Assembly: GCA_019058245.1 (NCBI GenBank)
Contig: JAHPZJ010000030.1
Location: 128,001 to 192,000, forward strand
Length of the DNA stretch: 64,000 nt
Direction: 5' to 3'
From: Promethearchaeota archaeon
GTDB lineage: Archaea; Asgardarchaeota; Lokiarchaeia; Sigyniarchaeales; SOKP01
How positions within the stretch are numbered: position 1 is the first letter of the stretch; every line of letters starts with the position of its first letter. The translations under genes and the position numbers were made by a program. Below the pieces are notes generated by a model. The model saw only the letters and a program-made list of their open reading frames with translations, was not told the origin of the DNA and did no database searches. Below, piece by piece: positions 5,967-14,009 of this stretch.

Positions 5967-7469
5967 CTAAAATCGAACTTTTATATCTCTCTTATGAAGA
6001 TAAGATTTTAAATCCTTGATTTTTATTGTCTTTGTATGGAACAAAGATGCTGCTAAGACCGCTTCTGCCCCAGCTTTAATAGCTTCATAAAAATGTTCAT
6101 AATTACCTGCTCCACCCGAAGCAATTAATGGTACTGATATCACATTGGTGAGATTTTGAATTAATTTAAAGTCATAACCTAATTGAGTCCCATCTCGATC
6201 CATACTAGTAACAAGTAGTTCCCCTGCACCCCTTTCAACAACTTCTTTTGCCCATTCTATTGCATCTAATCCTGTTGATTCTGTACCCGCCTTTATATAT
6301 ACTTCCCAAGTATCTGCTTTTTTCTTTACGTCAATTGCACACACAATAGACTGACTTCCAAACTTTTGAGCACCTTCAGTTATAACTTTGGGATTATCTA
6401 CGGCAGCAGTGTTAATACTTACTTTTTCTGCCCCTGTATTAATGATATTTGTTATATCATTCAAATTTCTAATACCGCCTCCTACTGTAAAAGGAATATA
6501 TACTTCTTCAGCAACCTTTCTCAAAGTTTGATACAATATTGATCGTTTTTCTAAGGTTGCAGAAATGTCTAGAAATACTAATTCATCCGCACCTTCTGAA
6601 TTATAGAATCTAGATAATTCTACAGGGTCTCCACTATCCTTCAAGTTGAGGTATTGTACACCCTTTACTACTCTTCCATCTTTAATATCAAGGCATGGCA
6701 CTATCCTTTTTGCTAAATTGGTTGGGTCATACTTTTTTGTTAAATCTCTTAAATTTTTATTACTTAATTTATTACTATAAAACGCTTTTCCAATAATAAC
6801 ACCATCTGCATAGTGTAGAACTTGATTAATATCATTTAAATTGCTTATTCCACCAGAAGCAATTACTTTGGTGTCTGGATGTTTAATATTTGAAATATTC
6901 TTGTATATCTCAAAATTAGGGCCTTCTAAAGTTCCATCACGTGATACATCGGTTATTATAAAGTTTGAAACACCTTGTTCTTCTAAATTCTTAAACTGAG
7001 ATTCTAAAGTAATATTTGTATCTTCAAGCCAACCCTTTATCCTCAAATTACCATTGAGAACATCTAGTGCAACTATTATATCATTATTATATTTTTTCAT
7101 TAAATTCCTAAAAAGAGTTTGATTTTCAATAGCAATAGTCCCAATAATAACCTTATAAAGCCCTAGACCTAATAATTCTCTAATAGTTCTTTCAGTCCTG
7201 ATTCCCCCTCCTAGTTGAATTTTTGAGCCCCATTTCTTACTTTCTTCTATCAAAGATCTTATAACTTCATAATTTGGTCCATTCTCAAATTCACCTGATT
7301 TTGCTCCATTTAAATTTATAACGTGTATCTGCTCGATCCCTTGATTAAAAAAATTCTTAAGTAATTCAACAGGTCTTTTAGAATAATTATTAATTTTATC
7401 AAAATCTCCTTTATATAACCTAACAACATTACCATTTAACAAATCAATAGCAGGAATTATTTTTTTCAT
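5967..7469 (-). CDS. hisAF: HisA-HisF fusion (ProFAR isomerase plus imidazole glycerol phosphate synthase cyclase)
   Basis: N-half [35 protein letters not shown] (HisA). C-half [30 protein letters not shown] (HisF). Single ORF with no internal stop. Confidence 0.95.
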
Positions 7470-7476
7470 ATTATAA

Positions 7477-8070
7477 TCACCTCTTTATCAAGGAAATGAA
7501 ATATTTAATAATTCTATCACCTGCATCTTGACTTTTTTCTGGATGAAATTGGGTAGCTATTACGTGATCTTTTAGGATTATAACTGGAATAGAGATCCCA
7601 TGATTTACATAAGAGATTATAGTATTTTTATCATTGGGATTACAATAATATGAATGGTTAAAATAAACATAACCATAAAAATATGGTTTTGAAGATGGGA
7701 TTAATCTATTCCATCCAGTATGAGGAATTCTAATAGATTGATTTGGGGTTAATCTAATTACCTTTCCAGGGATGATATCTAATCCACTAATATCTAAAGA
7801 TTCTTCAGAATTTGAAAATAATAGTTGCATGCCTAAGCAGATACCCATTGTTGGAACAGTAAGAATAGAATCTTTTAATGGGGAGAACAATCCATTTTGT
7901 TTAAGTTCTTTAACAGCATCACCAAAAGCGCCTACTCCAGGGAGAATCAAACCTTTAGATTTCTCTATTAAATCTAGATCTCTTGAAATAATGACATCCG
8001 GATAAAATCTTTGAACACTTTTTTGAATCGACCGAAGATTGCCACTACCATAATCTATTATAGTAATCAT
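7477..8070 (-). CDS. hisH: Imidazole glycerol phosphate synthase glutaminase subunit
   Basis: MITIIDYGSGNLRSI, LPGVGAF, GICLGMQ, QFHPEKS. Start moved to the ATG at 8070, which removes the overlap with hisB. Confidence 0.95.
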   Translation of the reverse strand: MITIIDYGSGNLRSIQKSVQRFYPDVIISRDLDLIEKSKGLILPGVGAFGDAVKELKQNGLFSPLKDSILTVPTMGICLGMQLLFSNSEESLDISGLDIIPGKVIRLTPNQSIRIPHTGWNRLIPSSKPYFYGYVYFNHSYYCNPNDKNTIISYVNHGISIPVIILKDHVIATQFHPEKSQDAGDRIIKYFISLIKR

Positions 8071-8083
8071 GTTAAATACCAAA

Positions 8084-8689
8084 TTACAATATTCCTTTAC
8101 TTGAAGGAAGTTTTCGATTCCCTTTTGAATCAATTCTAGTGCTATAATCCAATGCTTTACCTAGAGATTTAAATATTGCTTCTGCAATATGATGGTTATT
8201 TTTACCATAGAGAACTCTAACATGGAGTGTTATTTGGGCATTAATTGAAAATGTATATAAAAAATGCTCTATTAAATCGACTGGGATTAAATTATCCTCC
8301 TTCGATCCTATAAACGGATTTGTCCAATTGATTTGCTTTTTAAAAAATGGTCTTGAAGAGATATCGATGGCAACAAATGCGAGGCACTCATCCATAGGAA
8401 AAAAACAATGTCCAACTCGTGTAATTCCAATTTTATTTCCTAAGGCTTTATTAAAAACTTTACCTAATACAATGGAGGTATCTTCAATGAGGTGATGATT
8501 ATCAACATTAAGATCACCCTCCGCAAAAATATTCATATCAAATTTTCCGTGAATAGCAATTTGGGTAAGAAGATGATCAAAAATACCGATTGAAGTCTCA
8601 ATTTTACAATCACCAACTCCATCAATATTAATTTCAATATTAATGCTTGTTTCCTTGGTTTTTCTTTCTAATTTAGCTTTTCTTTCCAT
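8084..8689 (-). CDS. hisB: Imidazoleglycerol-phosphate dehydratase (monofunctional)
   Basis: RKTKETSI, FDHLL, DNHHLIED, PMDE, NNHHIAEAIFK, PSSKG. Likely start is MERKAK at 8689. Confidence 0.95.
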   Translation of the reverse strand: MERKAKLERKTKETSINIEINIDGVGDCKIETSIGIFDHLLTQIAIHGKFDMNIFAEGDLNVDNHHLIEDTSIVLGKVFNKALGNKIGITRVGHCFFPMDECLAFVAIDISSRPFFKKQINWTNPFIGSKEDNLIPVDLIEHFLYTFSINAQITLHVRVLYGKNNHHIAEAIFKSLGKALDYSTRIDSKGNRKLPSSKGIL

Positions 8690-8690
8690 T

Positions 8691-9824
8691 TTAATTCTCC
8701 TCAAAATATGATTTTAATATTTCTATTACCTTTTTCATTTGTAAACTTGTACCTATTGAGATTCTCAAGCAATTTGAGAGTTCTGCTGTATAATTTCTTA
8801 CTTTAATTTTATTATTCAATAAATATTGATAAACTGAATCTGAAATTTCAGATGATTCAAATCTTAATAAAATAAAATTTGTCTGACTTGGATGTATATA
8901 AAAAATCTTATTATTCTTTCTTAAATTAAGAAGGTCCTTAAAAAATTCTTCTCGAATAGATATGATTTTTTTAATATTTGCTGAAATTTCATCTTTTTTA
9001 TCTAATAATAATAAACCATATTGCAAAGCTACATTATTTACATTAAAAGGGCTTTTTATACGAATTAATATTTCATTAATGGAAGGATTTGATATTGTAT
9101 AACCTAATCTTAATCCTGCGAGAGAATAAGACTTGCTAAATGATCGAGAGATAATTAAATTATCATAAGATTTGATTAAATCTACTGCACTCAGACCATC
9201 ACTGAAATCAATATAAGCTTCATCAATAATTACTAATTTTTTCAACATTAAAAGTTGTTTAATAAAATCAAGAGAGATTAACATTCCATCTGGATTATTT
9301 GGTCTAGATAAGATAATAATATTTGATGATTTAGCCCTCTTCATAAAATTGAGTTGATCTAAATCATATTCTGCAATACCCGTTGTTTCATTTATTGATA
9401 ATCTTAGCGGAAATGATTCATACTTTGCACCATTTATATTCGCAAAAAATTTATACATTGAAAACGTTGGATCAATGCTTAAAATAGTGGTTTTAGGTGT
9501 GGCATAGATCTTAATGATAAGACCTATAATTTCATTAGAGCCTGTTCCTGCTAAGAGATATGAAATAGGTAATTCTAGATCCTTTGATAGCTTATCTAAA
9601 AATGTATTAGCATTCAAATCTGGATAATTTTTTAAAATATTTAATGATTTTAAATTTGCTAAATCTCCTAAAGGTGGTACAAAAGGACTTTCATTTTTAT
9701 CTAAAAATATCATCTCATTTTCCTGGCTCGATTTATCTAAATATGAAAGTGAATCAAAATTTTGAGAATCTAAGTACTTCCTAATAATTTTAGAAGGCTT
9801 AATAGTGTAATTTTTTTTATCCAA
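8691..9824 (-). CDS. hisC: Histidinol-phosphate aminotransferase
   Basis: LDKNESP, YPD, PNNPDG, IDEAY and PLP-lysine motif RSFSKSYSLAGLRLG. TTG start. Confidence 0.93.
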   Translation of the reverse strand: MDKKNYTIKPSKIIRKYLDSQNFDSLSYLDKSSQENEMIFLDKNESPFVPPLGDLANLKSLNILKNYPDLNANTFLDKLSKDLELPISYLLAGTGSNEIIGLIIKIYATPKTTILSIDPTFSMYKFFANINGAKYESFPLRLSINETTGIAEYDLDQLNFMKRAKSSNIIILSRPNNPDGMLISLDFIKQLLMLKKLVIIDEAYIDFSDGLSAVDLIKSYDNLIISRSFSKSYSLAGLRLGYTISNPSINEILIRIKSPFNVNNVALQYGLLLLDKKDEISANIKKIISIREEFFKDLLNLRKNNKIFYIHPSQTNFILLRFESSEISDSVYQYLLNNKIKVRNYTAELSNCLRISIGTSLQMKKVIEILKSYFEEN

Positions 9825-11156
9825 TTAACGCCCCTCCTTTACATTTTTATTTAAAGCTGTCCTTAAAGCTGCCGCATTTGCATGTCCTGTTAGGTCTTCA
9901 GATTTTGCTATTATTTCAGCATGTTCAGATAATCTAAAAGCTGTTTCTTCATTTAAATAGACATAACTAATCCTTTTAATAAAATCATAAACTGATAAAG
10001 CAGATGAAAAGCGAGCTGTGCCATTTGTCGGCATCACATGACTAGGTCCTGCTATATAGTCACCTAAAACTTCAAAGGAGTTTTCTCCTATAAAAATCCC
10101 TCCTGCATTTTCTATTTTATCTAAAACTGTCATAGGCTCTTTAATCATAAGAGATAAATGTTCAGGTGCAAATTCATTTGAAATTTGTATTGATTCTTCT
10201 ATTGAATTTGTTAAAACAATACCACCATTGCTTTGAATTGATTCTTTAATAATAGATTTTCCTTTCAGAGTTATAATTTGCCTTTCTAACTCTTTTTTCA
10301 CAGATGAAATTAAATTTTCAGATGAAGTAACTAAGATAGGAATAGCTAAAATATCGTGTTCTGCTTGTGCTAATAGATCTGAAGCAACTAATGAGGGATT
10401 TGCTGTTTCATCAGCAATTACCAATGCTTCAGTAGGTCCATATATCCCATCAATTCCCACTGTTCCATAAACTTCCTTCTTTGCTAAATTTACATAGATA
10501 TTTCCAGGTCCTACGATTTTATCCACTCTAGGAATTTGTTCCGTTCCAAATGCCATAGCTGCAATAGCTTGAGCTCCACCTATCCTAAAAATTCTTATAT
10601 TGATATCATACTTCTTGATTAACCCAAAAGTTGCGAGGATAATGTTTGGTAAAGTACCTTGCTTATTGGGAGGAGAAGTAAATATTATATTTTTAACTCC
10701 TGCTACTATGGCTGGTATAGTTGCCATTAAAATTGAAGAAAATAGAGGAGCTATTCCTCCTGGAATATATATTCCAACTGTTTCAATAGGTTTTATGATT
10801 TGACCTATTTGACCGCCAAGGTTATAATTCATCCAAGAGATGATAGGTTGAAATTTATGAAAATTATAAATTCTCTCACATGCAATTTCTAAAGCTTTTC
10901 TTAACTTAGGATTAATAGAACTCAGATATTTTTCAAAATCAACATCTAATAATTCAAATTGTTCAATATCTACTTTATCTAACTTTAATGTCCAATCTTT
11001 AAGTGCTGCGTCTTTTCTTTCCTTGACATCTTTTACAATGACTTTTACACTTTCCTCTGGAGTAATATCTTCACTTTTAGACATTTCATTTAAAGTAGTA
11101 AAATATCTATTTAATATAGTATTTCTAGCTTCATCAACTGTATAAGTTTTAATCAT
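9825..11156 (-). CDS. hisD: Histidinol dehydrogenase
   Basis: GGAQAIAAMAFG, KIVGPGN, DLLAQAEHD, APEHL, GDYIAGPSHVMPT. Confidence 0.96.
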   Translation of the reverse strand: MIKTYTVDEARNTILNRYFTTLNEMSKSEDITPEESVKVIVKDVKERKDAALKDWTLKLDKVDIEQFELLDVDFEKYLSSINPKLRKALEIACERIYNFHKFQPIISWMNYNLGGQIGQIIKPIETVGIYIPGGIAPLFSSILMATIPAIVAGVKNIIFTSPPNKQGTLPNIILATFGLIKKYDINIRIFRIGGAQAIAAMAFGTEQIPRVDKIVGPGNIYVNLAKKEVYGTVGIDGIYGPTEALVIADETANPSLVASDLLAQAEHDILAIPILVTSSENLISSVKKELERQIITLKGKSIIKESIQSNGGIVLTNSIEESIQISNEFAPEHLSLMIKEPMTVLDKIENAGGIFIGENSFEVLGDYIAGPSHVMPTNGTARFSSALSVYDFIKRISYVYLNEETAFRLSEHAEIIAKSEDLTGHANAAALRTALNKNVKEGR

Positions 11157-12168
11157 TATACATCCCCAAATTCTTTAATAATTTAATATATCTCAAAGGT
11201 TCTTCCTCAAAAATATAGAGTGTGGGAGCGACAACTACACCACTTCCTCCAATTGCTCTTAAACTTCTTATTGCTTTTTGTAATTTTTCCTTCTCAACTA
11301 TTACATGAATAGCATACATTTTTTCTCCACTTTTTGTAAAGACTGATGAGATTGTAGGTCCTTGAAGGCCTTCAAGTCCCTTTTTAGAAAAGACATTATT
11401 AGCAATTTCCTCTGGGCTTTCTCCTCTCATGTTTACAAAAACTGATACAAAATTTTGAGCTCTTAAAGTAGCTTCAATAAATTCAATCAATTGACGAGCA
11501 ACTTTTAAAACAGTCTCATTTTTTAAAGCAGTTTGATTTCCAATAAGTACCGACTCAGATGTCATTATTTTTCCACCATTAATTCTTTTTAAACGATTAT
11601 CCTTTAAAGTTTGTCCTGTTGATACAAGATCAACTATGATATCACTATAACCTAGCTCAGGATATACCTCAATAGAGCCATTACCTTTAATTAACTCATA
11701 CTCAATATCAAGGGAACTCAAAAACTGTTTAGTAAGTTTTGTAAATTTAGTAGCGACTCTAAGTGATTTCTTATTTATCTTTATCTCTTCAATTGATTCT
11801 TCTGTCCAATCTTCAGGAACTGCTATTTCAAGGCTGCATTTTCCAAAATTTAATGCATTGTGCATAATTACTAACTCATTTTCATTTAAAGGTGTATATT
11901 CAAGCACTAGATCATAACCAACTATACCCATTTCTAAAGACCCATTCAACACGCCTCTAACAATATCTACTTGTCGTTGATAAACCAATTGAAGATTAAT
12001 GAGTCCTTGGATTGATCCGATATATTGTCTATTGTTTCTTTGTATATTAAAGCCGCAACTTCTTAAAAATTCTTGAGTTTCGATTTCCATTCTTCCCTTC
12101 GAAGGAATTGCTAATCTTACTTGACGAGATTTATATTTTGGAAATATTTTTTGTAGATCTTCTTTCAT
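11149..12168 (-). CDS. hisG: ATP phosphoribosyltransferase, long form
   Basis: [30 protein letters not shown] and a C-terminal regulatory domain containing GLQGPTIS. Confidence 0.94.
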
Positions 12169-13073
12169 CTATTTCTCCTCCTTAATTCGGTGATTATTTC
12201 TTCAGGTTTAATTTTTTTGGTAGCCATTAATACAAGAATAAAATAAGTTACGTCAGCTATTTCCCAAATTAAGTTGTCCCTATCGGTATAATTTATCACT
12301 TCGGTACACTCTTCCTCAATTTTAGACATTAATAATTCATTATTTTCTGCAAGTTTTTTACTATAAGATTCATTTACACTATAATTTTCAATTCTATCAA
12401 TTATTAAATCATAGAGAAATTTTATAGAAAATTTCTGATCCTGAAAACAAGAATAAGAACCTTTATGACAAGCAAAACCTTTTTGTTTTACTCTAAATAA
12501 TAAAGTATCTGCATCACAATCGTATAAAATTTTCTTTATAATTTGATAATTCCCTGATTCTTCGCCTTTTATCCATAGTCGGTTTCTTGATCTGCTGAAG
12601 TAAGTTGATCTTCTAGTTTTGATTGTTTGTTTCAAAGACTCTTTTGATGAATATGCGAGCATTAGAACATTATCATCGAGATCTTGAACTATTGTTGGAA
12701 TCAATCCATTTCCTTTATCAAAATCTAAAATATTAAACAAAATATTATCTATCAATGAATAATCTTTAATTGAGTTAAAACTTAAAATTTCATCATTTTT
12801 ATGAGATTGTGGATTATATTTTATCATTCCCTTTTCTGTTATTAAATCATTCAATTCTTTTTGATTAATTTCTGAATCATTCCATATTTTAACCTTTTTA
12901 GAAACTCTCTTAAGCATATCACTCTTTATCAGTGCAATAAGACTTTCCTTACTAGCTTCAAGAACAAGAATCATAAACAGATCCCAATTTCGTTTTATAT
13001 ATACTCCATCTATAAACTCTTTTAAGCTTCCAAGCGTTTTCATATCCTTCATATTAATTTTTAATATTATCAT
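12165..13073 (-). CDS. hisIE: Bifunctional PR-AMP cyclohydrolase / PR-ATP pyrophosphatase with N-terminal extension
   Basis: [39 protein letters not shown] (HisI); SY..KL, KIEEE, WEIAD (HisE). About 110 extra N-terminal aa. Confidence 0.92.
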
Positions 13074-13084
13074 AATTATTCCCC

Positions 13085-13162
13085 CAAACTAAAATTGAAT
13101 TTAGTTTGATTTAAATCCGATGAATAAAAGATACCTTATACTATATTAATTCATCGGAATTA
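13085..13162 (-). promoter_or_regulatory. Two stem-loops between the His-rich leader ORF and the hisIE ribosome-binding site
   Basis: TCCGATGAAT (13116-13125) pairs with ATTCATCGGA (13149-13158). CAAACTAAA (13085-13093) pairs with TTTAGTTTG (13100-13108), abutting GGGGGA before the hisIE ATG. Confidence 0.6.
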
Positions 13163-13222
13163 TTCATGATGTAGCCAATGATGCAAGTATGAATTACGGG
13201 TTTTAAAACAATCACCTCTCAC
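13160..13222 (-). CDS. Putative his operon leader peptide (MRGDCFKTRNSYLHHWLHHE)
   Basis: GTG at 13222 to TAA at 13160, with 4 CAT codons in the last 7 sense codons, ending 86 nt upstream of hisIE. The frame is also open from ATG 13324 (54 aa). Confidence 0.6.
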   Translation of the reverse strand: MRGDCFKTRNSYLHHWLHHE

Positions 13223-13231
13223 ATCATTCGA

Positions 13232-13255
13232 TTTAATAACAAGATTGTTATTAAA
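13232..13255. promoter_or_regulatory. Perfect 11-bp inverted repeat, candidate operator of the his operon
   Basis: TTTAATAACAA-GA-TTGTTATTAAA, just downstream of a TTATAAAT TATA-like box (13266-13259) on the minus strand. Confidence 0.45.
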
Positions 13256-13571
13256 GTTATTTATAATAAAGAAACTCAATTTAGAAAGACATTGGTTAAG
13301 AACATTTTTTCTATTAAAATCCATACCAAATTCACTTTTATTGAGTTCTTTTTATCAAAGCCAGAGTTATTCGGCTTATATCAATTTATTATATAATTTA
13401 TGGAAAAGAACCTAAAAAAGTTTTCTATTATTTAGTTCTAAAAAAATCAAGGTTTTGTTTGATCTTGTTAAATTTTTTCAATTCTCAAGCAGAAATATAA
13501 ATTTTAACATATAAAAGGATCTAATAAAATAAAATCTTATTTCAATAAGGGAAATTATAAGAACTGTAAAC

Positions 13572-14009
13572 TTAGATTCTCATTTTATATAATTCTTTAT
13601 CTGGAATATAACTCATCATAATTAAATCGTCTCGGATTTCCCATCCTAAATTCTGATAAAATTCAACGACATTTTTATTGTATTTTTCGATAAATAAATG
13701 GATTTTATGTACTCGTAATTCACGAAATTTCTCGATTAATGCATCCATTATTTTTTTCCCATATCCCTTTTTTTGATAATCTGGATCTACAGCAAGATGA
13801 TGGACATAACCTCTCCTTCCATCGAACCCTCCAATCACAACGCTAATTATTTTATTGTTAATCTTTCCAATTAAGAAAAGATCAGGATTACGTTGAAGCA
13901 TTTTGTTAATTTCTTCTAATATATCAGAAGAGCCTACATTGATTCCAGCTTTTCTCCAGAGTGCCACAATTTCCTCATAATAATCTATAGTAAATTTTTC
14001 AATCTTCAT
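13572..14009 (-). CDS. GNAT family acetyltransferase (YpeA-like)
   Basis: GGFDGRRGYVHHLAVDPDYQKKGYGK and N..VVEFYQNLGW. Confidence 0.9.
   Translation of the reverse strand: MKIEKFTIDYYEEIVALWRKAGINVGSSDILEEINKMLQRNPDLFLIGKINNKIISVVIGGFDGRRGYVHHLAVDPDYQKKGYGKKIMDALIEKFRELRVHKIHLFIEKYNKNVVEFYQNLGWEIRDDLIMMSYIPDKELYKMRI

Follow-up and report, generated by a model that had tools for sequence, protein, structure and literature searches.

The histidine operon in the window (the whole 64,000-nucleotide stretch of DNA analysed here) is preceded by a short reading frame whose last codons are rich in histidine, and this leader very probably acts as a ribosome-mediated histidine sensor, built around a hisL-like frame and coupled to an output unlike the bacterial one; its function is deduced from the logic of attenuation. 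Comparison of related loci finds the same set of predicted parts, namely a promoter-like element, a ribosome-binding site, an open frame of 36–62 codons, His codons just before its stop, and a hairpin, H3, at that stop. For the reading in which the leader senses histidine and H3 is the switch, taken jointly, we estimate a probability of about 0.65. That the leader is a translated His sensor seems highly likely from its pattern of conservation, and that H3 is a switch operated by the ribosome is likely according to the folding models. The output, which we propose to be termination or cleavage of the aCPSF1 type, is put forward tentatively, at slightly less than even odds. The features on which the argument draws, in window coordinates, are as follows.

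13572–14009, minus strand: GNAT acetyltransferase gene upstream of the leader (Pfam).
13412–13425, minus strand: conserved element, A-rich and then CTTTTTTAG, a probable BRE/TATA promoter and possibly an operator (upstream alignment).
13273–13347, minus strand: hairpin H0, with arms 13347–13340 and 13280–13273 and a loop that holds the ribosome-binding site and start codon of the leader (alignment).
13332–13335, minus strand: GUGA, Shine-Dalgarno-like site of the leader ORF (kept in the alignment).
13160–13324, minus strand: leader ORF of 54 codons ending HHWLHHE*, from ATG 13324 to TAA 13162–13160.
13232–13255, minus strand: hairpin H1, inside the ORF (85% paired, 4 pairs with two-sided changes).
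13176–13229, minus strand: hairpin H2, formed between an upstream arm containing GAUG and the first His-His pair (folding).
13166–13183, minus strand: His codon cluster, His-His-Trp-Leu-His-His, the proposed sensor (conserved among 27 loci).
13113–13162, minus strand: hairpin H3, beginning at the stop codon, the proposed ON structure (covariation).
13085–13108, minus strand: hairpin H4, immediately 5' of the ribosome-binding site of hisIE (alignment).
13081–13085, minus strand: G-rich ribosome-binding site of hisIE (sequence; G-run kept in the alignment).
5967–13073, minus strand: operon hisIE-hisG-hisD-hisC-hisB-hisH-hisAF, with ORFs that overlap or abut (Pfam).

A first-pass annotation of this DNA had described a minus-strand frame ending YLHHWLHHE* 86 nt before hisIE, with its His codons confined to the last seven sense codons. 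Both statements hold: the frame lies at 13324–13160, its four His codons are all CAT and all fall among the final seven sense codons, and 86 nt separate its stop from the hisIE ATG at 13073. The three starts considered at that time are indeed in frame, as is a TTG giving 39 aa that had gone unmentioned; of the three, GTG 13222 (20 aa) and TTG 13186 (8 aa) were rejected for lack of conservation across orthologs, and the conserved open frame, start codon and GUGA site, the last found ahead of the start in most aligned loci, fix the beginning of the leader at ATG 13324. The sequence GTGA is about 10-fold enriched 10–14 nt before ATGs genome-wide, and the leader's GUGA starts 11 nt before its ATG. 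In a scan of this genome (G000) for small ORFs ending 20–260 nt upstream of a gene, this was the only one of 3,010 with at least four His among its last nine codons; the genome-wide His frequency is 1.6%. Its singularity, together with the recurrence of the cluster in 27 of 27 related loci, argues against a chance origin.

The comparison covered 135 genomes of the family, 27 of which have this type of hisIE; 16 of these, from three genera, belong to the lineage of this operon. In all 16, hisIE is preceded at 75–92 nt by the stop of an ORF whose last 12 codons include 4–8 His, and the same leader, with 3–6 His, precedes the operon in 11 of 11 further metagenome contigs. The lineage thus comprises 27 loci (16 genomes and 11 contigs), every one with a cluster of 3–8 His in the last 12 codons before a stop 75–92 nt upstream of hisIE, a count in which the loci are related and hence not independent, two of them being near-identical. 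Relatives have His, Cys, Tyr, Arg or Phe where the cluster here has Trp. Each of the 26 sequences tested keeps the frame open over 36–62 codons (shuffle probability 0.01–0.08 each), with indels that preserve it, and the other two frames contain 2–13 stops. The interior of the peptide drifts, with a dN/dS of 0.58 (six independent pairs) versus 0.42 for the weakly constrained N-terminus of HisIE. The clusters present in every locus, the preserved frame, start and ribosome-binding site and the covarying hairpins lend comparative support to the earlier proposal of a His-sensing uORF or attenuator. The accompanying suggestion that His clusters upstream of orthologous operons should be conserved with synonymous variation was borne out in its first half, and the variation proved small, at 109 CAU to 7 CAC (94% CAU, versus 85% genome-wide). 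Few synonymous changes fit a role of these codons in RNA pairing, which by itself accounts for part of their conservation.

The leader is missing from nine loci of a sister clade of the operon (HisIE of 397–404 aa). Two loci, L064 (G148) and L066 (G113), combine the leader and short HisIE of the present lineage with a HisG only 55–56% identical, like that of the leaderless clade, which suggests recombination between operon types.

The leader region folds far better than shuffled sequences (z = -4.4). Across 23 aligned leaders, its five helices have 89.8% of cells paired, versus 26–46% when partners are slid, and two-sided changes occur at 18 of 43 pairs, versus 4–9 with slid partners; this control is inflated by the relatedness of the leaders and does not amount to a probability. 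Support is strongest for H3, with two-sided changes at 8 of 11 pairs, 91–96% pairing and many G-U wobbles. H4 (93% paired) and H0 (86% of cells paired in the 23 sequences) each have three such pairs, H4 with a loop of variable length and H0 with a loss in the subgroup L067/L120/L121/L123. H2 is 91% paired with an invariant core, and hence gains no support from covariation. The frequent G-U wobbles and variable loops indicate RNA hairpins rather than DNA palindromes, and on the same grounds H3 and H4 are disfavoured as DNA operators. The His-Trp codons repeat the sequence of the H3 3' arm; a duplex between them and the 5' arm would span 7 bp in the window. This pairing is available in 17 of 23 loci (85% paired) and shows no covariation. 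A search with an RNA model of the leader found no second copy in this genome and no match in the sister clade or in the hisC-first leaders described below.

How might such a leader work? When charged His-tRNA is scarce, a ribosome would stall on the His codons with its leading edge short of H3; H3 and H4 could then fold back to back, and the operon would be expressed. We take folded H3 as the likely ON structure since a biosynthetic operon has to be expressed when the ribosome stalls. With plentiful histidine, the ribosome would reach the stop codon and cover the core of the H3 5' arm, opening the hairpin, exposing about 40 nt of A/U-rich RNA and leaving the freed His-Trp codons able to pair with the H3 5' arm. 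The exposed RNA would be acted on by aCPSF1/FttA, so that transcription would end before hisIE; this step and its effector are what we infer most freely. The ribosome-dependent part agrees with predicted geometry. In constrained folding, H3 stays intact until the ribosome front has moved 3–6 nt beyond the stop's first base, and melts at 6–9 nt, in most loci by 9, so that its predicted folding depends on ribosome position and it melts only with the ribosome at the stop. Archaeal ribosomes have a 27-nt footprint whose 5' edge lies 12 nt before the P site (PMC7261190), so that, with the stop in the A site, about 12 nt from the stop on, the core of the H3 5' arm, should be covered. The site covered by the terminating ribosome is thus where H3 collapses in silico, and a ribosome at the first His pair leaves the H3 arm uncovered. 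A first footprint model (plus or minus 15 nt) gave no switch in the opening energy of the start region.

With regard to the OFF state, no terminator-like site was found in a search for intrinsic terminators (0 sites), and H4 is followed by a G-run, not by U. The missing bacterial terminator, together with the failure of the anti-Shine-Dalgarno pairing in the swap test described below, makes termination by aCPSF1/FttA, which is encoded in this genome, the lead candidate. Archaea are not known to have Rho. The nuclease aCPSF1/FttA is discussed as its archaeal functional counterpart, prefers U-rich RNA, and has been proposed, still hypothetically, to compete with coupled ribosomes (PMC11616081); a Lokiarchaeota aCPSF1 orthologue is functional in Methanococcus (PMC13675443). 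The case for the termination step is weakened by the scarcity of U4 tracts, which occur in the exposed segment of only 7 of 23 leaders.

The same sensor could instead act by translational attenuation, the freed 3' arm of H3 reaching over H4 onto the hisIE ribosome-binding site, with polarity and translational coupling silencing the downstream genes. The layout would suit such a block: H4 abuts that site, the stop-to-start spacing is tightly kept, the his genes overlap or abut, and variants of this kind are known in bacteria (PMC9413887). Once the ribosome front passes stop+9, the G-run is also predicted to be less accessible (mean 0.48, down from 0.75), and native duplexes of 8–10 bp form in three loci (L063, L064, L066). 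However, in most loci the duplexes are no better than those of shuffled sequences, and across 23 loci native pairs are no better than swapped ones (-4.05 versus -3.81 kcal/mol, permutation p = 0.25). Since the p value of 0.06 obtained with 13 loci weakened in this way with 23, we have demoted the anti-Shine-Dalgarno model to a rival that we regard as unlikely. Termination–reinitiation from the leader stop to hisIE was rejected on logic, as it would raise expression when histidine is plentiful.

An untranslated structured RNA, riboswitch-like or protein-binding, in which the CAU repeats are kept only for pairing with AUG and GAUG arms, could draw on the 94% CAU usage, on the first His pair forming the 3' arm of H2, and on Trp-Leu codons that are fixed at the nucleotide level in many loci. 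It is nonetheless very improbable: conservation extends to the open frame, its start codon, the GUGA site and indels that keep the frame, the His count varies from 3 to 8 while always staying in frame and including CAC codons, and unrelated leaders and other amino-acid operons follow the same cognate-codon rule. Least plausible of all is a small His-rich protein co-transcribed with the operon and acting in trans, for example in metal binding, which could claim the interior dN/dS below 1 (0.58), a constraint explained by hairpins H0–H2 within the ORF, and annotation by gene callers in some contigs, but which is opposed by the lack of any Pfam or ESM Atlas match to the leader peptide, a length varying over 36–62 aa, a sequence widely divergent except for the terminal His run, and non-homologous His leaders at the same position.

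Leader-peptide attenuation is a textbook bacterial mechanism, and a ribosome-operated His sensor would place the Asgard leader beside several known systems. Rho-dependent forms include tnaC of E. coli and mgtL of Salmonella, in which the position of a ribosome on a uORF controls access of the termination factor to unstructured RNA; the logic of ribosome position would be alike here, whereas the sensor is a cognate codon cluster and a factor is only presumed to take part. The leader shares with the functional class a cluster of end-product codons near the stop and a conserved start, ribosome-binding site and frame. It is longer than E. coli HisL, at 54 codons versus 16. The enterobacterial hisL attenuator likewise combines a short uORF, in which tandem His codons closely precede the stop, with alternative hairpins and a downstream his operon (PMC9413887); it differs in its G+C-rich terminator hairpin with a U-tail, which is absent here, and the host and its machinery are archaeal in the present case. 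The Rfam model RF00514 (His_leader) had no match in 12900–13700 at E up to 10 and none genome-wide, with the E. coli control found, and the Rfam search returned only chance snoRNA matches outside the leader. The missing U-tailed hairpin and missing RF00514 match indicate that the leader is no copy of the hisL attenuator of bacteria and that its output step differs. Comparative genomics has identified independently evolved His-leader attenuators with 3–5 His codons in Firmicutes (Bacillus cereus group, Peptostreptococcaceae, Erysipelotrichales); like the present leader, these are unmatched by RF00514, but they have predicted terminator and antiterminator hairpins, none of which were found here (PMC9413887). 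In Archaea, ribosome profiling has revealed translated small ORFs in 5' UTRs of Haloferax volcanii and Methanosarcina mazei, and the excerpts of these reports used here assign them no amino-acid-sensing or attenuation function (PMC7261190, PMC10117724, PMC11456600). Our literature search, which left most subscription papers outside its reach, found no report or demonstration of an archaeal leader-peptide attenuator. A two-codon trp leader has reportedly been proposed in Methanothermobacter.

Are there similar leaders elsewhere? The small-ORF scan of this genome detected four further leaders rich in Arg, Leu or Trp, each with a hairpin at its stop, so that the arg, leu and trp operons have cognate leaders of their own; the names leuA, argJ and trpD are read from the sequences.

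Contig C30, 122484–122591, plus strand: Arg-rich leader ORF before argJ.
Contig C10, 40915–41016, plus strand: Leu-rich leader ORF before leuA.
Contig C6, 120951–121052, minus strand: Trp-rich leader ORF before trpD.
Contig C6, 112169–112246, minus strand: Trp-rich leader ORF before a GNAT-led gene.

The arg leader is also kept in genome G024. The aCPSF1/FttA model would expect spacers poor in G with U/C-rich tracts, and the arg and trp spacers are of this kind; those of the arg and second trp leaders share a short U/C-rich motif. It is conceivable, if somewhat doubtful, that these leaders belong to a genome-wide Asgard set of cognate-codon leaders (his, arg, leu, trp) in which ribosome-positioned hairpins gate aCPSF1/FttA, a CPSF73-type nuclease.

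Other his operons tell a comparable story. Rearranged, hisC-first operons in G055 (another family), G063 and G061 are preceded by leaders that end in 4–7 His, 150–167 nt before the first hisC ATG, and that are His-rich yet unmatched by the RNA model built on the window's leader. In G209, which belongs to another class, the genes stand in the same order behind a leader of 33 codons, seven of them His. The G055 leader, also with seven His (L106:6191–6319, plus strand), has no in-frame ATG, and its His codons pair with AUGAUG just past the stop. In 18 regions around more distant, archaeal-type his genes, no comparable leader with at least three His was found, so the leader appears to follow one type of his operon. 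Locus L172 (genome G193, minus strand) has, 61 nt before the earliest possible start of hisG, an ORF of nine codons whose last residues are two His and Asp.

The his leader is very probably a variant of leader-peptide attenuation in Asgard archaea, with an output that, judging by its sequence, differs from those of bacteria. If ribosome-positioned hairpins in such leaders do gate aCPSF1/FttA, attenuation would here be built from a eukaryote-like translation and 3'-end-processing machinery without a bacterial terminator. The leader would show that codon-specific uORF control operates in Asgard archaea. Conserved in the lineage closest to eukaryotes, it would also be a natural reporter of transcription–translation coupling and of competition between the ribosome and FttA. 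It may be possible to test the idea in culture, as G055, a closed genome of 6,035,313 bp with a His-rich leader of its own, is presumably that of the cultured Ca. Lokiarchaeum ossiferum.

Upstream of the leader, the element ending in CTTTTTTAG may be a putative promoter of leader and operon. It lies 71–101 nt before the uORF start in most of 26 upstream sequences, despite differing neighbour genes. The 12-mer of the element occurs only six times in the genome, without enrichment about 26 nt before genes, which makes a promoter role tentative. A link between the leader and the upstream GNAT gene was rejected, as the neighbouring genes vary among related loci.

The identification of the downstream genes as a histidine operon, made in the first-pass annotation, agrees with their Pfam domains (PRA-CH/PRA-PH, HisG, HisD, aminotransferase, IGPD, GATase and His_biosynth); the operon has seven genes, of which hisIE is the first and hisA-hisF a fusion. 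A metagenome scan with HisIE gave no match. The closest named relatives are mostly labelled Promethearchaeota or Lokiarchaeota (Lokiarchaeia), with one same-genus record labelled Odinarchaeota. The named close relatives of HisG are all archaeal and mostly Asgard, which gives no sign of a transfer of the operon from bacteria. HisIE (window 12165–13073, minus strand) has about 110 extra N-terminal residues without a Pfam match; relatives have forms of 385–407 aa, the N-terminal part of which aligns with the HisA-like domain of the G055 fusion, so that the extension looks like a decaying, internally deleted HisA remnant. For HisG (window 11149–12168, minus strand), 6czl, a plant enzyme, is by a wide margin the top PDB match (E 3.6e-75), and the next solved HisG structure follows at E 3e-31. 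A second, distant HisG-like gene is present in several relatives and in this genome, suggesting that Asgard archaea have two lineages of his genes.
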